Counted from the stretch's first letter, positions 10,058 through 50,064 are shown. The stretch: 64,000 bases of DNA from an uncultured bacterium (GCA_963844965.1 CAWJQC010000006.1:32001-96000), one strand, 5' to 3'. A program made the numbers and translations. Notes: generated by a model not told the origin, from the sequence alone.

Positions 10058-13014
10058 TCCTTAAGCGAGGGGTCTGAAGATCTGACAAGAAAGCGGAGCA
10101 TTCCCTCATACATTTGTTGCTGCTCGGAAAAACTGCCGTGAGTAAACTTGTCTGCGATTTCCTGGATATTCTTATCCTCAAAATATTTCTGGGACGCGCT
10201 GTCCAATGTGTGCGCCGCCTGAAACTTCTCCAGGCTGTTTAAATGGTCATGCCAATCGGTAAATTTACGCGCATACTCAAAATACTGGTCTATTCCCGCC
10301 TTCATATTCGGGGCGTGCGCAATCCGAGCTGCCATTTCGTCGGGAGAAATCGTTCCGACGCCGCTCGCGTGCGCCGCCTCGGCGCCGGTCGGATGCGTCA
10401 CGGGGACTTCCGCTGTCGGATGAGCGCCGACAGCCGCTCCGTGCTCCGCCAATTTTCCGACGATAAGCTGTTTATGACCCGTGGCTTTCAGAAGCCAATC
10501 CGGCACGGGCTTATGCCCCTTCACGAACGCTTTATAAAGATCCTCATTGGTGCCGAAACGCAAATTTTTGGCATAATTGACAACTTCAAAATGTCCGCCT
10601 TGTGCGTCCGGCGTGAAAATAATCTGGTCATGCGCGTGGCTCAGGCCAACTTCGTTTATGGGAACCTTTATGCCGTTTATCTCCACAGTGGAATGCGCCC
10701 AAGCGTGCCTGAACTGTTCCTCATTTAAAGCCCTGCCGACAAACGAATGCGCCGCCTTCCAAATATTTCCTCCTTTCTCAATCGTCGCGACGTTGTGCGA
10801 CTCTTTGGCCACAGCTTCAAGATGCGAAGCTAACTTTGCGCCAGTGGGAATTTCGTGCTTTACGGCTGCGGCTTCCACCGCGAGCTTCGCAGCCGCGCCC
10901 TTATGCACCGCTGCCCCCGCACGCTTTACCCCGCTGTGTTCTTTCTCCCAAGCGGACCTCAGAAAATCGTAAGTGGCGCCCAATCTTTGCTTGAGCTCCA
11001 GCTTGCCAGACAGATAATCAACGGGGTGGATCCCGGTCATATCGGCGACGTTCCTGATAGCCAAGGCGGACGCGCCGGAACCAACCACCAATCCCGCCGC
11101 CCCCGCAAACAACCACCGGCGCTGTTTCAAGCGGCGCTCTTTTTCGCGCAAAGATGCTTCGCTGGATTCAAATTCTTTCAGCATGGCCGCATCCTCGCTT
11201 TTCAAAAACTGCGCCAGTCCTTCGGCAACCTTTCCTTTTTCGATTTTTTCCATAGCCTCGCCAATCTTGGAACCAATTAGGTGCTCGAGCTCCTTGGCGA
11301 TTTTTTGCTCGTGCCCTTTCCGCATGCCCTTCTCCAGGGCTACAGCGAGAGACGCGCCGCTCATCACTCTCAACGCAGCGATGCCTGCCCCACCCGACAA
11401 CGAACCGACCGCGACAGATATCACAACCTTCTTTTTCCAATCTACCTTGCCGTACCAATTCACGAAGTCATAGATCTTTTCTCTATATTTGTGCAGTTTT
11501 TTATTTTCCTCGATCTCCAGTGCCGTCTTCGTGTCGTAAAGCTGCTTGAATTCGCCGACCAGACCGAAGGTGGTAAATTTTTTAATCTCAGCTTCTTTCT
11601 CTTCCGCGGCAAACTCTCCGGCTTTGATTTTCCCATCAGCTTCTTTTTCAAAGAAACTCAATTTGTATTCAAACTCCTGCTTGCGCGCTTCCAAATATTC
11701 TTTTTGCGCCGCTTCCAGTCCTGTTTTCAATTTTTCCGCCTCTGCCCTCTCCTCCGGTTTTTTGCTTCCTTCAAGTTTTTTAATTTTGCGGCTTAGCTCA
11801 GCGTACTTCGCGCGCTCCTCGCCTAGATTTTTCTCTAATGCTTCGTATTTTTTGCGCTCCTCGCGCTCTTCCGGCGTTTCCGGCACTTTTTCTTTTTTGG
11901 CTTTCTCCTTGTCTCCGGCTTTTTCCTTGGCCCGAACTCCTCCCTCGGTCAGAACTGGCTCTTTTTCTGCAACTATTCCTTCTGCCGGTTTGGCCTCCGT
12001 TTTTTGACCGGCTGGTTGACCACCTTCGGACATGGCAACCTTAAGTCTGGCAATCAAATCCTCTGGCCGTCCTTTTTTTACTTCATCCTCAGTTGCCACT
12101 CCCAAAGTCAACAATACATGTTCCAATTTCTTACTTATAAAAGCTGGCACACCGCCCTTGTCCGTCGCGCTCAAAATTTCTCTCGCAATTTGCTTGGCTC
12201 GTTCAGCTTCTTTATCCTCAACAACCACCTGCTTCTGTTCCTTCTTTACAACGCCAGGCGCCCCTTCCTGCGCAAGCGGAACTTCGCCGGCTTCCGTTTC
12301 CGGTCTAGCTTCGGACCTGCTCGCTAACTTTTCCCTAATTATTGCGTACAATTCGTTTGGTGATTTCCCTTGTAATTCCGTGTCGCGGAATCCATAGGCT
12401 CTGAGAATTTCCTCTGCCCGCCTCGGCTGATACGATAAACCAGTATCTATTTCCGACAAAAGGCGGCGCGCGGCTTCGTCTGCCTGCTCTTCCAATGTTT
12501 TCGCCGGCGGCAGCTCAACGGCATATAACTCAGCCGACGGTTTTTCTCCGATTTCCGTCTCCGCAACCGCTTGTTTGACCTCTGCCGGCGCGGTTTCCAC
12601 GGGTGACTTCAGCGCGGTCAAAGCTTCTTTTGAGAATTGCTCCAGCTCTGCTTCGGAGATGCTCCCCTTCTCCTGGAGTTTAGCGGCCTCCTGCATAATT
12701 TCGTCATCGCGCACGTAATAATCTTCTTCGGAGAATTCCTGCTTTCCGTAAAAAGCTTCTGGAGCTCGTTGCGCTGGGAGCGAAGATCTTAACAATTCTG
12801 ATTTCTTCTCGGCTGGCGTAGGCACCACCTCCTGTGCCCGTTCCGTTTCCGACATCACAACTTTTCCGACGCTTTCCGGCACTGGAGCTTCCGCGGCAGG
12901 TTGTGCCGACTCGGCTCCCAAATCTAAATCAAGAATCTTATCGATTCTCTTGGGTCCTTCGGAGGTCGAGACGGCTTTTTTCTTCGCATGTCCCTCACCA
13001 AAAAGTTTTGCCAC
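9988..13014 (-). CDS. Large hypothetical coiled-coil/membrane protein (1008 aa), probably continuing into 9074..10057
   Basis: Long K/E-rich coiled-coil stretches and central hydrophobic helices 'VVISVAVGSLSGGAGIAAL'. The C-terminal 'HGSFSEQQQ' motif is repeated as 'HASFSEQSQ' in the next ORF, and the two ORFs overlap by 70 nt in different frames. Confidence 0.65.
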   Translation of the reverse strand: MAKLFGEGHAKKKAVSTSEGPKRIDKILDLDLGAESAQPAAEAPVPESVGKVVMSETERAQEVVPTPAEKKSELLRSSLPAQRAPEAFYGKQEFSEEDYYVRDDEIMQEAAKLQEKGSISEAELEQFSKEALTALKSPVETAPAEVKQAVAETEIGEKPSAELYAVELPPAKTLEEQADEAARRLLSEIDTGLSYQPRRAEEILRAYGFRDTELQGKSPNELYAIIREKLASRSEARPETEAGEVPLAQEGAPGVVKKEQKQVVVEDKEAERAKQIAREILSATDKGGVPAFISKKLEHVLLTLGVATEDEVKKGRPEDLIARLKVAMSEGGQPAGQKTEAKPAEGIVAEKEPVLTEGGVRAKEKAGDKEKAKKEKVPETPEEREERKKYEALEKNLGEERAKYAELSRKIKKLEGSKKPEERAEAEKLKTGLEAAQKEYLEARKQEFEYKLSFFEKEADGKIKAGEFAAEEKEAEIKKFTTFGLVGEFKQLYDTKTALEIEENKKLHKYREKIYDFVNWYGKVDWKKKVVISVAVGSLSGGAGIAALRVMSGASLAVALEKGMRKGHEQKIAKELEHLIGSKIGEAMEKIEKGKVAEGLAQFLKSEDAAMLKEFESSEASLREKERRLKQRRWLFAGAAGLVVGSGASALAIRNVADMTGIHPVDYLSGKLELKQRLGATYDFLRSAWEKEHSGVKRAGAAVHKGAAAKLAVEAAAVKHEIPTGAKLASHLEAVAKESHNVATIEKGGNIWKAAHSFVGRALNEEQFRHAWAHSTVEINGIKVPINEVGLSHAHDQIIFTPDAQGGHFEVVNYAKNLRFGTNEDLYKAFVKGHKPVPDWLLKATGHKQLIVGKLAEHGAAVGAHPTAEVPVTHPTGAEAAHASGVGTISPDEMAARIAHAPNMKAGIDQYFEYARKFTDWHDHLNSLEKFQAAHTLDSASQKYFEDKNIQEIADKFTHGSFSEQQQMYEGMLRFLVRSSDPSLKDWCSHLIGNFAKDPVVRRSCVYV

Positions 13015-13765: not shown

Positions 13766-15948
13766 ATGGCAAAAAGAAACGGCAAAAAGGAACGTAAAGA
13801 AAAAAACAATAGAAATGACGCGCGGCGCGAACCGCCGCGCGAAGAACGGCTCCATCCCGACACGAAAAAAAGCATCTGGGCGATAACTTTTTTGGGTCTC
13901 GCTGTTATTTTCACCCTGGCCGCCTTCGCTAAAGCGGGACCTTTCGGCGACTTTCTGCACGGAATATTCGCAACGCTTTTCGGAGCCGGCTACTTCATGC
14001 TGCCCCTCGGCCTCACACTCGCCGCGGCCATCCTGCTCCTCACAGAAAGGCAAAGGGTCGTTGGCATTACAACGCTCGGCGCCGCGCTTATAGTTTGCTC
14101 GGCGCTCGGGCTCATAGAACTTGCCTCCGCCGGCAAGGGCGGCTGGCTCGGCCTCGTTTTCGGCTCTCTTAGATTGCCGTTCGGGACAACGGCGGCCGTG
14201 GTATTGAACATCGCGATTCTTGTAATCGGCATCCTCATTACCGTCAATATCCCACTCAAGCTCAGAAGACAGAGGAAAGATCTGGCCGCTGGCGAGGAAG
14301 GGAAAACGCTCGTGGTCACCGGCGAAGAGGCGGATGAACGACAAGAGACAGGCGGCAAAGGACAAGGGACAAGTGGCGAAAAGACAAAGGATGCGGAAAC
14401 CGAAAGAAACGCAAGTAAAGCCGAGATCGTTGAAAACGCCGCGCTCGCCGTGGAACCGAAAAAGGTCAGTCCGCCAAAATTCGCGGACTACATCCCGCCG
14501 CCACTCTCGCTCCTCAAATCCACCGGCGAGAAACCGACGACCGGCGACCTTCTCGCGAACGCCAACGTAATCAAGCGCACGCTTGATTCTTTCGGCATCG
14601 CGGTGGAAATGGGCGAAATAAACGTGGGGCCGGCCGTGACACGCTACACACTGAAACCGGCGGAGGGAATGAAGCTCTCGCGCATTGAGGCGTTGCACAA
14701 TGATCTGGCGCTGGCCTTGGCCGCGCACCCGATAAGAATAGAGGCGCCGATTCCTGGAAAATCTTTGGTTGGGATTGAAGTGCCGAACAAAGCCGCCGCG
14801 CTCGTGCGGCTCGGCAGTTTAATGACCTATCCGGAATTCCAAAAATCCGGTCCCTTGGGCTTCGTCCTCGGCCGCGACGTCTCCGGCAATCCGGTCTTCG
14901 CCGATATAGAAAAGATGCCGCACATGCTCGTCGCCGGCGCGACCGGTTCGGGAAAATCCATTCTGATACATTCGCTTCTTGTATCGCTTTTGTACAAAAA
15001 CTCACCCGCCACGCTTAAACTCATCCTCATAGACCCGAAACGCGTTGAACTTTCGGTTTACGACCATATACCGCATTTAGTGGGTCCCGTAATCATGGAA
15101 AGCAAAAAGGCGCTTGGCGTTTTCCGCTGGGCAATAAACGAAATGGAACGGAGATATGACCTACTTCTCCATGCCGGCAGCCGCGACATCAAAAGCTACA
15201 ACCAAAACGGCGGTAAGGACGAACCGCTCCCCTACCTTCTTATAGTCATAGACGAACTCGCGGATATGATGGCTTCATACGGCCGCGAAGTTGAGGGCTC
15301 AATCGTGCGTTTGGCACAGATGGCGCGGGCGACGGGCTTCATCTCATACTCTCAACGCAAAGGCCGTCGGTTGAAGTTATCACGGGGCTCATCAAGGCGA
15401 ACATCACGTCCCGCGCGGCGCTGCAGGTCGCAAGCCAAGTTGACTCACGGACAATATTGGATATGGGCGGCGCGGAAAAACTTCTGGGCCACGGCGACTT
15501 GCTTTATGTTTCTTCGGAACTTTCAAAACCCAAGAGAATCCAGGGCTCTTACATCACGGAGGAAGAGATAAATAAGGTGGCGGACTTCATACGCGACAAC
15601 AACATCCCGGACATAACCGGAATGACCAGCTTCGCGCCTGCCGCGGATTCGGAGCCAGACGAGAAAGGCGGGGGCGGAATGTTTGATGAATACCTTGAAG
15701 ATGAGGATGACGAACTGTATGATGAGGCGGTTGAAGTCGTGCGCGAGGCGAAAAAAGCATCGGCTTCGCTCCTCCAGCGGCGGCTCAAGGTCGGCTATGC
15801 CCGGGCCGCGCGGCTTCTGGACATTATGGAGGGGCGCGGCATTATCGGGCCGGGCGAAGGCGCGAAACCACGGGATGTTTATTTAGAAAAAATACCTGGA
15901 GGCCATGACGCCACCGGCTACGGAAACGAAGCCGGCGAAGAAGAATGA
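13766..15948 (+). CDS. ftsK: DNA translocase FtsK/SpoIIIE, split by one frameshift near 15334-15340
   Basis: N-terminal TM helices, Walker A 'GATGSGKS', and 'RLAQMARATG' are present. After 'acgggcttc' the canonical 'HLILSTQRPSVEVITGLIKANI...LDMGGAEKLLGHGDLLY' and gamma domain continue in another frame (ORF 15457..15948). The likely cause is a g deleted from a G-run. Confidence 0.85.
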
Positions 15949-41750: not shown

Positions 41751-41821
41751 GGGCACTTAGCTCAGTGGCAGAGCGACTCGCTTACACCGAGTAGGTCGGA
41801 GGTTCAATCCCTCCAGTGCCC
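41751..41821 (+). tRNA. tRNA-Val (TAC)
   Basis: GGGCACT acceptor. Anticodon stem ACTCG/CGAGT with loop CTTACAC. T-arm GGAGG-TTCAATC-CCTCC. Confidence 0.85.
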
Positions 41822-41872
41822 ACTAAAAAATCTAATGGGGCAAGCCGAGAAGGCTGCAGGTCCGATTCCTGC

Positions 41873-41976
41873 GTCGCCCACAGTGGCAGAGCGACCGCCT
41901 TACACGCGGTAGGTCGTAGGCTCGCCCCGTAGCAAACCGAAGGTTTTGCTTCGGGGTTCAATCCCTACAGCGCGCA
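41873..41976 (+). other. 5'-truncated tRNA-Val(TAC)-like pseudo-copy with a 36-nt hairpin insertion (41921..41956) between the T-stem and T-loop
   Basis: 'CAGTGGCAGAGCGACCGCCTTACACGCGGTAGGTCGTAGG[ctcgccccgtagcaaaccgaaggttttgcttcgggg]TTCAATCCCTACAGCGCGCA'. No matching 5' acceptor or D-stem is present. Confidence 0.55.
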
Positions 41977-42025
41977 CAAAAACAAAAACGTCCAACTGGG
42001 CCGTTTTTATTTTTGTGCGCTTCAG
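41977..42025 (+). terminator. Long inverted-repeat terminator
   Basis: gcgcacaaaaacaaaaacg...cgtttttatttttgtgcgc. Confidence 0.6.
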
Positions 42026-42133
42026 AACCCTCGGTTCTGAATAATCTCCGACACGGGAGGAACCTCATACTTTCTCGCGCCAATTTCTGAAGAAATTGGC
42101 GGCGCAAGGATTAATCAATATAATAACTAGAAT

Positions 42134-46405: not shown

Positions 46406-46470
46406 CACTTGCCTTTTTGTTAAAATTAGATTATAATCGTAGCGACGATTACGGTTTGATGTTTTGACAT

Positions 46471-46787
46471 GGGGATGATCGGCTTCGATAAGGATAAGTC
46501 CTGAACTGGCAAGCCAAGAGCTAACTTGTAAATCTGGCAAAAAATCAATAACTGCCAACTCAAAAGTTGCAGCTCCAGCATTCGCTTACGCGTAACGTTG
46601 GACATCGGCTGATCCGGGCTTCTTGGGTTAATACCGGTGTTATATAAGGAAGCTCGTTCCGAGTTGACGATTCTACGCTCGGCACTAAACACAGAATCAT
46701 TTCTGTCTAGTTTAACTGGACTACGCTTGTAGAAGGTTTAAGCGATTTTATCCTTACACGGCGGTTCAATTCCGCCCATCTCCACTA
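46471..46787 (+). ncRNA. ssrA: tmRNA (ssrA), tag ORF 46554..46592 (ANSKVAAPAFAYA*)
   Basis: 5' 'GGGGATGATCGGCTTCGATAAGG' matches the tmRNA consensus GGGGxxG....GGxUUCGA. The 3' T-arm is GGCGG-TTCAATT-CCGCC. The 3' strand CATCTCC pairs with GGGGATG, including a G3-U70 pair. The internal frame starts at a GCC resume codon and ends at TAA. Confidence 0.8.
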
Positions 46788-46960
46788 AAACAAAAATACT
46801 CGCTCCTTGTGAGCGGGTGTTTTTGTTTCTTGTAAAATGGTCTGGCGGAATTGAACGAGGGGTGGGCCGGAGGGGAAACTCGGTGTCCCCTCCGTGTAGG
46901 AAATTACTCAAAACCGAGGGTTGTGAGAGAGCGAGTTGCTGTATAGCGACTCGCGACGTG

Positions 46961-46980
46961 AAATTCCGCCCATCTCCACA
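46961..46980 (+). repeat. Direct repeat of the tmRNA 3' end, about 180 bp downstream of ssrA
   Basis: 'aattccgcccatctccac' is identical to tmRNA positions 46767-46784. Confidence 0.7.
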
Positions 46981-47186
46981 TAACCAGAATTGAACTTTAG
47001 AAAACCCTCCAGAAGGGTTGAAAAATCTAGCCCGACCCTGATTTTTTCTTGGTTTTCCATTTTGCGTTTTTGAAACAGTATCACGCGAGGGAGTGAATAT
47101 AAAAAAAACCGACACCTATTAGTGCCGGTTGTAAAGGATAGGTTTCTTTAGACAGTGATTCGACGGCTTTTTGCCGTTTTTTTTCG

Positions 47187-47969
47187 TTAAGCCGCAATCT
47201 TCTCGGCAAACACGGACGGCGGCATCTTGAGGGCGGAGTGGATCCGCGTGTGGTTGTACTGCCACAAGGTGCTGTAGATCTCCGCCACGAGCTCGCCGAA
47301 GGTCCCGAACCGGTTGGGATCACCGAGGTCAATCTTGAACTTGTCATAGAACGATTCCTGGTAGCCGTTTTCCCATGGGGCACCGGGCCGCGACCGCGAG
47401 ATCGTGATGCCACAGTCCCCCAGTGTATCGGTGAACGCTCGTGCCTTGTACTCGCTGCCGTTGTCCGAATGGAAGATGACCGGATGCGGATGGTGGAAAA
47501 GCGCGTTGGCCAGGGTCTGTATCGTGAGGGGCGATCCTTTCCGCAACGCCACATGGACGCCCATCAATCGTCTCGTGAAAAGATCGAGTATCGTGGACAC
47601 GTACACTTTCTTGCCGCGATACAGGAACTCCGTGAAATCGGTTGCCCAGACGTGGTTCGCGTACGAGGGCATGATGGCAAGTAAGAGGTTCGGAAAGGCC
47701 CGCGATGCCTTTGATTTCCGGTATTTCCTGCCTCGCCTCCGGTACGGCCTTATGCCGAAGATTCGCATGACGCGCTGCGCTCGCGGACGGCTCACGCCCA
47801 GAGCTTGTCCCAAGCGCCGGGAACCGTATGCCGGATGGCGCTGCAATTCTTCTTCCATGCGGATCTTGAGCGCCCAATCTTTCTTGTCCTGCCGTGATAC
47901 GTAGTAGAGCGATGCCCGCGAGACGCCCATGGCCCGCGCCATGGCGGACTTGTTCCGCTTTTCCGTCAA
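47187..47969 (-). CDS. IS3 transposase OrfB (rve integrase core, DDE)
   Basis: 'HSDNGSEY' integrase-core motif. It has a TTG start and is normally made as an OrfAB fusion. Confidence 0.8.
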   Translation of the reverse strand: MTEKRNKSAMARAMGVSRASLYYVSRQDKKDWALKIRMEEELQRHPAYGSRRLGQALGVSRPRAQRVMRIFGIRPYRRRGRKYRKSKASRAFPNLLLAIMPSYANHVWATDFTEFLYRGKKVYVSTILDLFTRRLMGVHVALRKGSPLTIQTLANALFHHPHPVIFHSDNGSEYKARAFTDTLGDCGITISRSRPGAPWENGYQESFYDKFKIDLGDPNRFGTFGELVAEIYSTLWQYNHTRIHSALKMPPSVFAEKIAA

Positions 47970-48229
47970 TTCTTTTTTTGGGCCTGGGAGAGCTTCACGG
48001 TGAGCTCGCCCACCACTTCAAACAGCTCCCTGTTCTGCTTCTGGAGACGGCTGAACTCGCCCCAGGAAGGGACGCCCGATGCTCCTGCGCCTAGCCAATT
48101 GTAGATGGTGGACTCGTGCAAACCGTGGTCCTTCGCAGCCTGCGCTACGGGGACTCCTTCTTCCTTCACCCGGCGGAGGATGTCCGCCTTCACTTCCTTC
48201 GCAATCCGATGCCCTTTTTTGTTGCTCAT
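47966..48229 (-). CDS. IS3 transposase OrfA (HTH)
   Basis: 'GVPVAQAAKDHGLHESTIYNW' HTH. It ends '...AQKKN*' across the A7G site. Confidence 0.75.
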   Translation of the reverse strand: MSNKKGHRIAKEVKADILRRVKEEGVPVAQAAKDHGLHESTIYNWLGAGASGVPSWGEFSRLQKQNRELFEVVGELTVKLSQAQKKN

Positions 48230-48257
48230 GACACAATGGTAGTTTGTTTCGACCTTT

Positions 48258-48467
48258 GTGTCTAAATTATCCTATCCGGGTCAAAGCTTCAAGATTCGCC
48301 CACCGGTCTTTATACCAATTTATAATAACAGCAATAAATTACACAAACAGTTATCAGAACTCTCCAAGGAGGCTCATAAAAACTATTCCAATGAAAAAGT
48401 TATTGCCGAAATCGACCAAGAGATAAACGAAGTTTACTTGAAAGTTTGCCAGCAAGAAAATAAATAG
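48258..48467 (+). CDS. Small AT-rich hypothetical ORF (69 aa) upstream of the recombinase
   Basis: ORF only. It partly overlaps the IS right end. Confidence 0.25.
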   Translation: MSKLSYPGQSFKIRPPVFIPIYNNSNKLHKQLSELSKEAHKNYSNEKVIAEIDQEINEVYLKVCQQENK

Positions 48468-48529
48468 CAATGAAAATACTCTTATAACTCTTCGAAGAAA
48501 TGATGGGGATACTTAATTTAAACTAAGCC

Positions 48530-50041
48530 ATGAAAGCAATAATCTTATCTCGCGTATCAACGAAAGAGCAGGCCGATGAGGGGCAATCCATACCAGCGCA
48601 AACGGGACGGCTCACTGAATACGTTAATAAAAAACAACTTGATCATTGGAAGGTTTTTGAGATCGCCGAAAGTTCTACGCACGATACAAGGAAAAAGTTT
48701 GATAAGGTTTTGGAGCTTATTAAGAAATCGCACGAGCCGCTTGCGCTTGTGGTTGAAACCGTTGACCGGCTGCAGCGGAGCTTTAAGGAAAGCGTTATTT
48801 TGGACGATCTGCGCAAAGAAGGCAAAGTTGAAATCCACTTTGTCCGCGAGGGCTTGATATTAACGAAGGATTCGAACAGCGCCCAGCTTTTACAATGGGA
48901 TATGGGCGTGATGTTTGCCCGCAGCTACGTTTTGCAATTAAGCGATAACGTGAAGCGCAGCAATGAGCAGAAACTGAAGAACGGCGAATGGATAAGCAAA
49001 GCGCCGATAGGTTATCGAAATATCAGGGATGAAAACGACAAGCCGGATATAGAAGTTGACCCCGAAGCATCGCCTTTTATCGTCAAGGTTTTCGAGCGCT
49101 ACGCCACTGGCAATTACTCGATGATTACGTTGGCCAAACAGATGCGCGAAGAAGGTTTTACCGGAAAACAACACGGCAATCCGATCACCGTTAGCCAGAT
49201 AGAGCGCATACTTAAAAATTCTTTTTACTACGGCGTTATGGAGGTTCACGGCAAACAATATCAGCACCGCTACCCACCGCTTATCTCAATGCACCTGTTT
49301 TTGAAATGCCGCAAGGTTATAGAAAGTTGGAATAAAAAACCGTTTCAACACGCCGCGAGGCCATTTATCTTTCGAGGTATCCTATCGTGTGCAACCTGCG
49401 GTTGCGCCATTACCGCAGAAATGGCAAAGGGCAAGTATATTTATTATCATTGCACGAATTTCAGGGGTATATGCGAGAAGGTATACGTGCCCGAAAAAGA
49501 CCTTTTAAAGCCCATAAAACGCTATCTGCGCAAGTTTGTGCTGCCGCAGGAAGGAATTGACTACGTTGTCGGTAAACTACGCACAACGACAGAAATCGAG
49601 CAGGAATACCACAATCAGGCGATGGCTACCCTAAAAGCCGAATATGACCGCTACGAGGCCAGAATCAGCAAAATGACCGATGACAAATACGACGGCAGTA
49701 TTACGCCCGAAATCTACGACAAAAAATTGAAAGAGTATAAGGCAAAGCAGGCCGACTTATTGAATCAGATGCAGGATCACAGCAAAGCCGACGAGCAGCA
49801 TCACCTTACGGCTACGAAATTACTTGATGTTTGCAAACGCGCCGATTCAATCTTCGAAAGTTCTGAACCGGCTGAAAAACGGCAATTTTTGAATTTCGTA
49901 TTTCAGAACTCGACGCTAAACCGAAATAAGCCAATGTTTATGCTGAAACCCGTGTTTGCGGGCATAGTAAAAGCGCACGAAACTCATAAATGGGGTGCCT
50001 ATCGGGATTCGAACCCGAGCCGAGAGTGCCACAGACTCTAG
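48530..50041 (+). CDS. Large serine recombinase (resolvase N-domain, recombinase domain, zinc ribbon)
   Basis: 'AIILSRVSTKEQ' catalytic Ser region and a Cys cluster 'CATCGCAITAE...YYHC'. The last ~17 codons run antisense through tRNA-His. Confidence 0.85.
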   Translation: MKAIILSRVSTKEQADEGQSIPAQTGRLTEYVNKKQLDHWKVFEIAESSTHDTRKKFDKVLELIKKSHEPLALVVETVDRLQRSFKESVILDDLRKEGKVEIHFVREGLILTKDSNSAQLLQWDMGVMFARSYVLQLSDNVKRSNEQKLKNGEWISKAPIGYRNIRDENDKPDIEVDPEASPFIVKVFERYATGNYSMITLAKQMREEGFTGKQHGNPITVSQIERILKNSFYYGVMEVHGKQYQHRYPPLISMHLFLKCRKVIESWNKKPFQHAARPFIFRGILSCATCGCAITAEMAKGKYIYYHCTNFRGICEKVYVPEKDLLKPIKRYLRKFVLPQEGIDYVVGKLRTTTEIEQEYHNQAMATLKAEYDRYEARISKMTDDKYDGSITPEIYDKKLKEYKAKQADLLNQMQDHSKADEQHHLTATKLLDVCKRADSIFESSEPAEKRQFLNFVFQNSTLNRNKPMFMLKPVFAGIVKAHETHKWGAYRDSNPSRECHRL

Positions 50042-50064
50042 TGCTGCCGTTACACCATAGGCAC
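49990..50064 (-). tRNA. tRNA-His (GTG) with encoded G-1 and CCA
   Basis: 8-bp acceptor GGTGCCTA/TAGGCACC. Anticodon stem AGAGT/ACTCT with loop CTGTGGC. T-arm CTCGG-GTTCGAAT-CCCGA. Confidence 0.8.

Follow-up and report, generated by a model that had tools for sequence, protein, structure and literature searches.

The Serine Recombinase and tRNA-His

The region considered here occupies positions 46471-50064 of a 64,000-nucleotide stretch of DNA from an uncultured bacterium of the Patescibacteria (GCA_963844965.1 CAWJQC010000006.1:32001-96000; the whole stretch is referred to below as the window, and positions without a locus prefix are counted from its first nucleotide). It contains the transfer-messenger RNA (tmRNA) gene ssrA, followed by a duplicate of its own 3' end, an insertion sequence (IS) of the IS3 family, and the gene of a large serine recombinase (LSR) overlapping a tRNA-His gene, all of which had been reported in a first-pass annotation of the sequence and were recovered by ARAGORN, Rfam, Pfam and repeat searches. 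The ssrA gene (plus strand) and the tRNA-His gene (minus strand) are convergent and lie 3.2 kb apart. The first-pass annotation regarded the entire region, recombinase included, as a single tmRNA-associated one; our results divide it, as the LSR belongs to tRNA-His and the tmRNA repeat stems from a separate event. The segment 48285-49990 is best explained as the right-hand stump of an integrative plasmid-like element of ~8-11 kb, which entered the 3' end of tRNA-His by means of its own LSR, and we consider this explanation as a whole, including the integration mechanism proposed below for the respective clade of integrases, to be highly probable.

The open reading frame (ORF) of the LSR (48530-50041, plus strand) encodes a protein of 503 amino acid residues with the Pfam domains Resolvase, comprising the catalytic domain (PF00239, E-value 1e-15, residues 3-154), Recombinase (PF07508, 3.5e-13) and Zn_ribbon_recom (PF13408, 6e-8). 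All 61 residues that are invariant in the family, as determined from an alignment of 30 sequences, are present in the protein, among them R8 and S10 of the RVSTKEQ motif and C287, C290 and C308 of the zinc ribbon. Its similarity to the structurally solved LSRs is remote, and the sequence search retrieved only the catalytic domain of TP901-1 (E-value 4e-4). Structural comparisons were performed with the homologue P0006 (71% identical) in place of the window protein itself. The AlphaFold model of P0006, with a mean predicted local distance difference test score (pLDDT) of 86.6, possesses long helices at residues 346-394 and 399-442, corresponding to the coiled-coil insertion, and its top Foldseek matches are the full-length integrases of SPbeta, Bxb1, phiC31 and LI (E-values 3e-19 to 1e-12). 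The assignment of the window protein to the LSRs is secure.

The conserved part of the LSR (residues 1-487, 48530-49990), as delimited by Pfam and by the invariant columns, is followed by the tail WGAYRDSNPSRECHRL with the stop codon (49991-50041), which is the antisense of the 3' half of tRNA-His. The tRNA-His(gtg) gene itself (49991-50064, minus strand; predicted by ARAGORN and scoring 57.7 bits with the Rfam tRNA model) is intact and has an encoded CCA. The overlap amounts to 51 nt, or the final 17 codons of the LSR, as had been described previously, and its first codon, TGG (Trp488, 49991-49993), reads antisense to the CCA of the gene. We interpret this boundary as an attR junction with the core around TGGGGT, the terminal ~25 bp of the conserved part being the presumed P arm of the former attP, and the tRNA gene providing the B' half of the former attB. 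The earlier statement that the integrase abuts its tRNA attachment site is borne out for this junction and, as follows from the data on its relatives, for the family in general.

The sequence upstream of the LSR gene retains a piece of the element's cargo, namely the 3' remnant (60 codons and a stop) of an Eco57I-like type IIG restriction-modification (R-M) gene (48285-48467, plus strand), cut off precisely where the IS ends on the right. A comparison of the IS and of the region upstream of the integrase with the collected loci L001-L088 showed no homology, and it was a later tblastn search that linked the R-M remnant to the C-terminus of a 1086-residue protein encoded by the Eco57I/N6_Mtase gene of the complete Kazan-group genome L022 (L022:6744-10004; 47% identity, E-value 8e-20), where this gene adjoins the integrase gene upstream. 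The right-hand boundary of the IS coincides exactly with the start of the homology to L022, the sequence to the left of the IS being unrelated. Apparently, the replication gene, most of the R-M cargo and the left-hand junction (attL) of the window element would have been lost in a deletion with its endpoint at the right end of IS3, in which the IS itself may have taken part.

No attL was detected in the 64-kb window by tblastn with three tail peptides, by a regular expression for the protein, or with the DNA motif TTYAGAACNNTNRAYTGG; the P' motif and tail, the remaining part of the R-M gene and the rest of the element are likewise absent from the whole of it. A second copy of the tRNA-His 3' end, suggested in the first-pass annotation as a means of defining the element ends, is absent from the window too, and none is expected, as the elements of this clade are flanked by cores of 5-15 nt and the P' motif. 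The LSR gene is apparently intact, yet it is without a partner site in the window, and for this reason the stump is probably immobile. Of the proposal that the region is a hot spot of a decayed or minimal element the first half can be retained, the ssrA-tRNA-His region as a mobile-element graveyard being supported by our data; the element is not minimal by design, as it was truncated at IS3 with 60 codons of the cargo left.

Distribution and Targets of the Integrase Clade

A protein search returned 1539 LSR homologues, the named ones belonging to Patescibacteria, Parcubacteria or Falkowbacteria. Conservation of their C-termini reaches as far as ...K/N-W, the sequences beyond it being heterogeneous. 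W-x(2-5)-D/E-S/L-N, the pattern of most tails, represents the antisense of CCA followed by the antisense of the T-loop, GGTTCGAATCC; tails of the W..DSN type were found in 38 of 120 homologues, and another 38 proteins of this set stop 1-4 residues past the same Trp. A scan of GTDB, in which each species was represented by one genome, revealed 228 relatives, and the 80 loci kept for the analysis originate from Patescibacteria, Chlamydiota, Verrucomicrobiota, Babeliales, Bdellovibrionales and some gammaproteobacterial bins. In 46 of these loci the end of the conserved ORF meets a tRNA or tmRNA gene of the minus strand at the 3' end of the latter, and a tRNA-like antisense tail is encoded in 20 more (some of these alignments ended early, others concern tRNA 3' fragments or contig ends), so that the LSR frame enters a tRNA or tmRNA 3' end in ~66 of the 80 loci; a further six possess an attP-type tail and no tRNA. 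The targets include tRNA-Asn, His, Gln, Tyr, Arg(tct), Glu, Trp and Leu, as well as tmRNA. The closest homologues of the window LSR (81%, 74% and 74% identity; L001, L004/L009 and L010) all reside at tRNA-His in differing genomic contexts, and distant relatives (33-39% identity) are encoded on viral contigs of IMG/VR. The overlap of the LSR and tRNA genes is a property of the whole family and not an accident of the window locus.

This result qualifies the earlier remark that such an overlap is unusual for the serine family. In the TIGER survey, tRNA and tmRNA genes were used by 44.5% of tyrosine integrases and by ~4.9% (14/297) of serine ones, the latter use being termed previously unreported (PMC7192596), so the arrangement is indeed rare among serine integrases at large; it is, however, no oddity of the locus, but the defining architecture of a large LSR clade. 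Our literature search found no description of this clade or of LSRs targeting tRNA or tmRNA genes, with subscription journals being mostly uncovered and an earlier description therefore possible; the paper that appeared to be a candidate for an LSR acting at a tRNA concerns a tyrosine integrase (PMC6764341).

Free and Integrated Forms and Their Attachment Sites

Contig L007, which encodes P0006, is 9875 bp long with an exact terminal overlap of 141 bp, i.e., it represents a circle of ~9.7 kb, and L008, obtained from an independent sample, is identical to it in sequence and circularly permuted. Both are without a tRNA gene, and the integrase continues there as ...WLPLLVAFRTIDW..., the part past the Trp being WLPLLVAFRTIDWRALSTEMAQMSFT in P0006. 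The integrase genes of two IMG/VR viral contigs, L174 and L175, share the same sequence (100% identity over 1606 nt) as far as TGGCTG, past which L174 runs into tRNA-Gln and L175 into an attP-type tail with no tRNA; the two contigs supply attR and attP as a naturally matched pair. More than 35 integrated loci encode the tail motif [FL]RTx[DN]W upstream of the integrase gene, on its strand and at a distance of 5-11 kb. These upstream sites represent attL and give element sizes of ~5-11 kb. Since the free forms carry the FRTxDW tail, which is also encoded at the far end of the integrated copies, attP is placed inside the 3' end of the integrase gene. A clear attL with the tail FRTVDW was also seen in L022 (Kazan bacterium CP011216).

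These forms bear directly on another reading of the window locus, according to which the LSR gene at tRNA-His became domesticated or fixed in the host, or its overlap with the tRNA is an artefact of gene calling in a frame with no earlier stop, and no mobile element is involved. It is true that the LSR gene is the only complete gene of the putative element left, that its ORF is intact with all invariant residues, and that the window has no attL. However, the 60 codons upstream belong to a truncated cargo gene that occupies the same position in an intact element, the closest relatives are located in cassettes of 8-11 kb with differing host flanks and identifiable attL, the clade includes free circular and viral-contig forms, and the reading through into the tRNA is systematic and explained by the junction. 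Considering these facts, we regard this reading as largely refuted and assign to it only a very slight probability; the stump of an integrative element remains the preferred interpretation.

The cores shared by attL and attR are 5-15 nt long and overlap the TGG (e.g., GTGGCTG, ATGGCAGAGC and GAATGGGGGCGG or, at tmRNA, TTGGAGGTGGAGAGA). This TGG is the antisense of CCA at the tRNA-His, Gln, Asn, Arg and Trp targets and the antisense of C71-C72-A73 at tRNA-Tyr and tmRNA. Counted from the TGG, the antisense T-loop TTCGAAC lies at +17/+14 in the B' arm, and TTYAGAAC lies at +22/+19 in the P' arm, which makes a constant outward shift of 5 bp in all attL/attR pairs read and in the L174/L175 pair; the window itself possesses only attR. 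In LI integrase the motif of the zinc-ribbon domain, TTTAGTATC, is shifted by the same 5 bp between attB and attP (PMC3783163). The crossover must fall within the shared core, at tRNA positions ~70-76, and the mature tRNA is preserved due to this location at the extreme 3' end.

The occupied tRNA-His genes were observed in two states. In the first, the full CCA is encoded, with C75 and A76 located in the TGG codon (L001:11462-11473, L004:11468-11479 and, in the window, 49991-49993); in the second, only ...CACCCA is present, and the integrase codon is ATG, CTG, TTG or GTG (L018, L019, L021, L025 and L083). Integration may thus turn a CCA-less tRNA gene into a CCA-encoding one in some hosts.

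As for the tail, the P0006 model is folded up to residue ~491, immediately ahead of the Trp, and the tail has a pLDDT below 50. The conservation of FRTxDW coincides with the DNA motif, as its Arg is always encoded by AGA and the TGG is fixed, and to judge by this it probably reflects the DNA site. In one subgroup of Patescibacteria, the only one with clear synonymous variation there, the conservation extends past the motif (WTxIKxELQFSxIL), and a function of the tail at the protein level is possible in some lineages; as to selection on the tail, crude counts of synonymous and non-synonymous changes are uninformative between sequences so divergent. A functional C-terminal switch finds no structural support in the AlphaFold model, given the low tail pLDDT. 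That the loss and regain of the FRTxDW tail upon integration, excision or tandem integration tunes the direction of recombination is a rather improbable idea, and a regulatory C-terminal switch should be taken as speculation.

Among the intact relatives, L001, L007 and L022 encode homologous proteins of 371-385 residues, the one in L022 matching the rolling-circle initiator family Phage_CRI. The cargo of the intact relatives comprises type III or type IIG R-M systems, genes of the toxin-antitoxin type (a PemK-family toxin in L008 and a SocA/Panacea-family antitoxin in L022), SpoVG and a small HTH_17 protein. Judging from this set of genes, the elements look like integrative plasmids or episomes.

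In L060 (Chlamydiales; 1170-1260 and 11380-11500), the attL of a tmRNA element is preceded by an apparent older integrase 3' end (...EGCPNSW / RWRDKFRTFDW), and it seems that a second element was integrated in the attR of the first one, as in tandem accretion, the older integrase regaining an attP-type tail. Three copies of the tail and P' motif ~640 bp apart, each reading ...IRDxFRTFDWVRFRFEN, are found in L063:4281-5620, and two or three copies also in L062:5867-8170, L025:3600-4290 and L040:2062-3960. These multi-copy P' loci could be either arrays of decayed elements or small attP-only non-autonomous elements mobilised in trans.

Proposed Mechanism of Integration and Its Comparison with Known Systems

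In the mechanism we propose, the integrase ORF of the free circle would cross attP, with the P arm formed by the final ~25 bp of its conserved part and ending in TGG, and the P' arm encoding the short ...(L)LDxFRTxDW... tail. The integrase would join this attP to an attB whose B' arm is the tRNA or tmRNA 3' end (the 3' strand of the acceptor stem and the T-arm), the catalysis of the attP x attB reaction by the clade members being putative at the level of sequence. The crossover in the short core would keep the mature tRNA, the CCA often being re-supplied by the TGG codon. After integration, the ORF would read into the antisense tRNA, and the P' arm with the tail codons would come to lie at attL, at a distance of 5-11 kb. 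It is presumably the zinc-ribbon domain that reads the near-universal T-loop sequence, as the spacing of TTCGAAC and TTYAGAAC suggests, and such recognition would explain how sister integrases can use many tRNAs and tmRNA. The more general proposition, that the homologues form a broad and apparently undescribed clade of LSRs which land at tRNA and tmRNA 3' ends, read the T-loop by the zinc ribbon, carry attP in their own ORF, and have their C-terminus rewritten upon integration, often supplying the CCA, appears to us about evenly balanced between being right and wrong.

Some facts weigh against this interpretation or narrow it. The crossover dinucleotide is not fixed by the data: 74/73 fits every pair, while 72/71 is in better agreement with the LI structure and fails in L004. 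The B arm, i.e., the downstream flank of the tRNA, shows no conserved motif by which the second integrase subunit would bind attB. About 8 of the 80 loci are unclear, and the family counts are based on one species representative per genome and on regular-expression classes of our own making. The L022 integrase reads at its attR (11440-11500) into TGGCTCAACAGGTCGGTTCAGATTGG, which ARAGORN does not call as a tRNA, and its target may be degenerate or not a tRNA. For the window locus, the coincidence of the endpoints is the only sign of a part of IS3 in the deletion, and no empty tRNA-His site was found in a close relative. A scan of genome contigs using the GDPD protein, whose gene neighbours ssrA, gave no match; a search of the database of 5.8 billion proteins retrieved no relative above 62% identity, and of the three best contigs those with DNA were not syntenic.

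The characterised LSRs are, as far as is known, targeted to protein-coding genes or intergenic sites. With such LSRs as phiC31, Bxb1, A118/LI, SPbeta and TP901-1, the clade shares the order of the domains (resolvase, recombinase and zinc ribbon with the coiled-coil insertion). Unlike them, it is remote in sequence, is directed to tRNA and tmRNA 3' ends without disrupting them, and has attP inside the integrase ORF, so that integration replaces the last 10-35 codons. The short attachment sites with a small core and a motif displaced by 5 bp outward in attP are also in common with the known LSRs (LI, PMC3783163).

The islands of tyrosine integrases (the Islander/TIGER classes and P4-like elements) resemble the elements described here in their conserved RNA gene targets, the function of which is kept, in the position of the integrase at the junction and in the tandem build-up at one tRNA. 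They differ in that the enzyme family and chemistry are unrelated and the identity of the flanks in our clade is restricted to ~5-15 nt at the extreme 3' end, instead of a long block from the anticodon loop or the T-loop. Integration also splits the archaeal integrases of the SSV1 type, and in the integration-dependent immunity of mycobacteriophages attP lies within the repressor gene. As in these systems, integration in the clade alters the 3' end of an element gene, giving different C-termini in the free and integrated states; in contrast to them (both involve tyrosine recombinases), the fold of the clade integrase ends just before the junction, so a regulatory role is unproven.

By itself, the window locus is of modest biological importance, being a dead stump, and the family architecture exposed by it is of more interest. 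Serine integrases are the main tools for the insertion of large DNA, their natural sites being idiosyncratic, and non-model hosts often need a site to be installed first. If the clade indeed lands at tRNA and tmRNA genes and leaves them undamaged, it would provide ready landing pads in almost any bacterium, including groups poor in genetic tools like Patescibacteria and Chlamydiota, and the matched free and integrated forms with their 5-bp shift make up many natural attP/attB pairs with which the model of attachment-site discrimination can be probed. The integrative replicons of ~10 kb with R-M and toxin-antitoxin-type genes look like a significant route of defence genes in Patescibacteria, the mobile elements of which are, to our knowledge, little characterised. 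For the preference of tyrosine integrases for tRNA and tmRNA genes, the authors of TIGER suggested a mechanistic cause peculiar to these enzymes (PMC7192596); a serine clade with a different route of recognition, if confirmed, would show that this preference is not tied to the tyrosine chemistry.

The Duplicated 3' End of ssrA

The ssrA gene (46471-46785, plus strand) was identified by ARAGORN, with the tag peptide ANSKVAAPAFAYA followed by a stop, and by the full-length match to the Rfam tmRNA model (RF00023, model positions 1-374, 119.5 bits, E-value 6e-47); a promoter scan located a promoter-like site for it at 46409-46437. Its last 18 nt, AATTCCGCCCATCTCCAC (46768-46785), recur as an exact second copy at 46962-46979 (plus strand), resembling an att-type scar, and these are the only two exact occurrences in the window. 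The exact copy is thus as described before, its distance being slightly different: the gap between the copies is 176 nt instead of 177, and they are 194 nt apart from start to start. The repeat is certainly not a product of chance, as shuffled versions of the window contain on average 0.06 matches to the 18-mer at three or fewer mismatches. One match with three mismatches (TATTTCGCCCATTTCCAC, with no tRNA called) is present at 14603-14620 on the minus strand and is probably accidental.

According to the structure line of the Rfam alignment, the repeat is made up of four T-loop nucleotides, both 3' strands (that of the T-stem and that of the acceptor stem), A73 and C74. The identity of the two copies stops on the right at C74, after which the flanks diverge at once, and its left-hand limit lies inside the T-loop. 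When copy 2 is extended leftward by direct reading, 21 of 26 positions are equal to the true tmRNA sequence. The intrinsic terminator of ssrA, a hairpin with a T-run (46788-46828, plus strand) recognized by the repeat search, the terminator scan and folding, directly follows the gene, and the repeat is not a part of it.

With this strong terminator opens the 176-bp spacer between the copies (46786-46961), a presumed remnant of an integrated element. The spacer contains two G+C-rich hairpins and, at 46844-46856, 13 nt that repeat the tmRNA T-arm exactly in inverted orientation (GGCGGAATTGAAC) and pair with repeat copy 2, closing a three-hairpin structure (46786-46990). The predicted minimum free energy of the spacer with copy 2 is -88 kcal/mol (z = -6.8), none of 200 shuffled sequences being as stable, and no Rfam family matched this fold above the threshold. 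Neither the spacer nor the 150-bp segment between copy 2 and the IS (46980-47129), for which no homology was found, has a homologue in loci L001-L088. The latter segment ends with a terminator-like hairpin on the minus strand (47107-47130; a 10-bp stem and eight T), which lies on the same strand as the transposase, directly outside the left IS end, and is either a terminator of the read-out from the IS or a leftover of a deleted minus-strand gene. The tmRNA repeat with its spacer makes a scar of the att type at ssrA that is separate and older.

As the source of this scar we prefer an island with a tyrosine integrase that entered ssrA in the T-loop, brought its own gene 3' end with a terminator, and was later deleted down to 176 bp. 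Such an origin, unrelated to the LSR, competes only with an interpretation of the whole region as a single element, and we would give it about as much chance of being correct as of being incorrect. Tyrosine integrases reportedly use characteristic sublocations within tRNA and tmRNA genes, and the identity block extending from the T-loop to the gene 3' end (46768-46785) agrees with this pattern. Tyrosine islands typically have the target RNA gene's 3' part repeated directly at both of their ends; such a repeat is present for ssrA (18 nt) and absent for tRNA-His in the window. Moreover, a functional terminator sits within the spacer, and copy 2 is similar to the true tmRNA and dissimilar to a P' arm, having no TTYAGAAC at the expected distance. 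Comparable tRNA 3' fragments occur beside integrases of the LSR clade elsewhere: in L040 a 53-nt 3' fragment of tRNA-Tyr adjoins the integrase gene, and the complete tRNA-Tyr is 3.85 kb away, the repeat (11459-11516 and 15312-15369) being 58 nt long, 97% identical, comprising the 3' part of the tRNA and paralleling the tmRNA repeat of the window; the interval between these copies encodes an ankyrin-repeat protein and a nucleotidyltransferase, without an integrase.

What speaks against an island of this kind is that no tyrosine integrase or other island gene is left, that 176 bp is extremely small for a remnant keeping both att sites, and that, with no related genome found, neither an intact island nor an empty site was seen. 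The 176-bp interval is too short for an integrase gene, and Pfam found no match to Phage_integrase among the ORFs between ssrA and tRNA-His, which are orfA and orfB of the IS, a 69-residue ORF over the R-M remnant, a 58-residue ORF at 46817-46993, and the LSR.

Alternatively, the repeat might have been made by an ssrA-targeting LSR of the same clade, copy 2 being the tRNA mimic of an inner P' arm or a junction with a degraded integrase gene to its right. Clade members located at tmRNA do exist (L043, L052, L056, L059, L060 and L084), in L060 a direct repeat of 15 nt from the tmRNA 3' end encloses the element, and the identity of the two window copies ends exactly at C74, inside the inferred crossover core. 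In addition, a minus-strand frame to the right of copy 2, ...QPFWRVF*SSILVMW, has PF 13 residues before a Trp codon, as in the family, and a second frame, RFFNPSGGFSKVQFWLCG, aligns to the C-terminus of P0092. A degraded integrase gene lacks statistical support here, though: the blastx E-value is 2.4, a C-terminal hidden Markov model places the candidate 30th among 1871 Trp-terminated peptides of the window, and the two frames are mutually exclusive. Besides, there is no FRT/TTYAGAAC motif on the side required for a P' arm, and the identity reaches four nucleotides into the T-loop, beyond any P' mimic in the family. This origin of the repeat is accordingly unlikely, and the tyrosine-integrase island is retained as the preferred one.

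The segment 46962-47010, in which TTTAGAA lies 17-18 nt from the repeat end, was also considered as the cognate attL of the tRNA-His element and was rejected, because its central dinucleotide would be CA/AC in place of GG, it runs directly into a stop codon, and it contains nothing else of the motif.

Another place in the window resembles the ssrA scar. The tRNA-Val(tac) gene (41751-41823) is intact, and ~10-240 nt downstream of it (41830-42060) there are several tRNA-like pieces not called by ARAGORN or Rfam, including a fragment of a T-arm with an acceptor strand, GCAGGTCCGATTCCTGCGTCGCCCAC, and a second body resembling tRNA-Val, in which 36 nt are inserted ahead of the T-loop. They are followed by a long A/T-rich hairpin terminator (41958-42010), similar to the one after ssrA, and then by TTCAGAACCCTCGGTTCTGAA. 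The segment 42026-42056 is equal at 27 of 31 positions to the inverted segment 46892-46922 of the ssrA spacer. The region 41830-42060 may be a second tRNA-associated scar in this genome.

The IS3 Element

The IS (47130-48283, minus strand) is 1154 bp long, its ends being set by homology to more than 20 independent relatives. It encodes orfA (47966-48229, minus strand) with the helix-turn-helix domain HTH_Tnp_1 and orfB (47187-47969, minus strand) with the DDE-type domains rve and rve_3 (Pfam). The slippery heptamer A_AAA_AAG (47978-47972, minus strand) is in the correct X_XXY_YYZ phase, and a -1 frameshift at it would give an OrfAB fusion of 347 residues; programmed -1 frameshifting at A_AAA_AAG is known for IS3 elements of the IS150/IS911 type. 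The inverted repeats are imperfect (19 of 30 positions match), with the termini TG...CA conserved in the relatives. In all these respects the element is a regular member of the IS3 family, in accordance with its first description. A target-site duplication, 3-5 bp long in this family, is not visible (the flanks are ggt and aag), and none is clear in 11 related copies with both flanks available either; as the relatives are also without one, its absence is uninformative with respect to the deletion. The G+C content of the IS is 0.57 versus 0.475 in the flanks.

A nucleotide search of a plasmid collection with the IS gave no match. In the metagenomes of JGI and ENA, 301 related stretches were found, with OrfB identity of up to 83% at the amino acid level. 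Many of these relatives come from the Hainich groundwater and from peat, and many of the contigs are 1.1-1.3 kb long, i.e., approximately of the IS length, which is the usual mark of a multi-copy repeat breaking assemblies.

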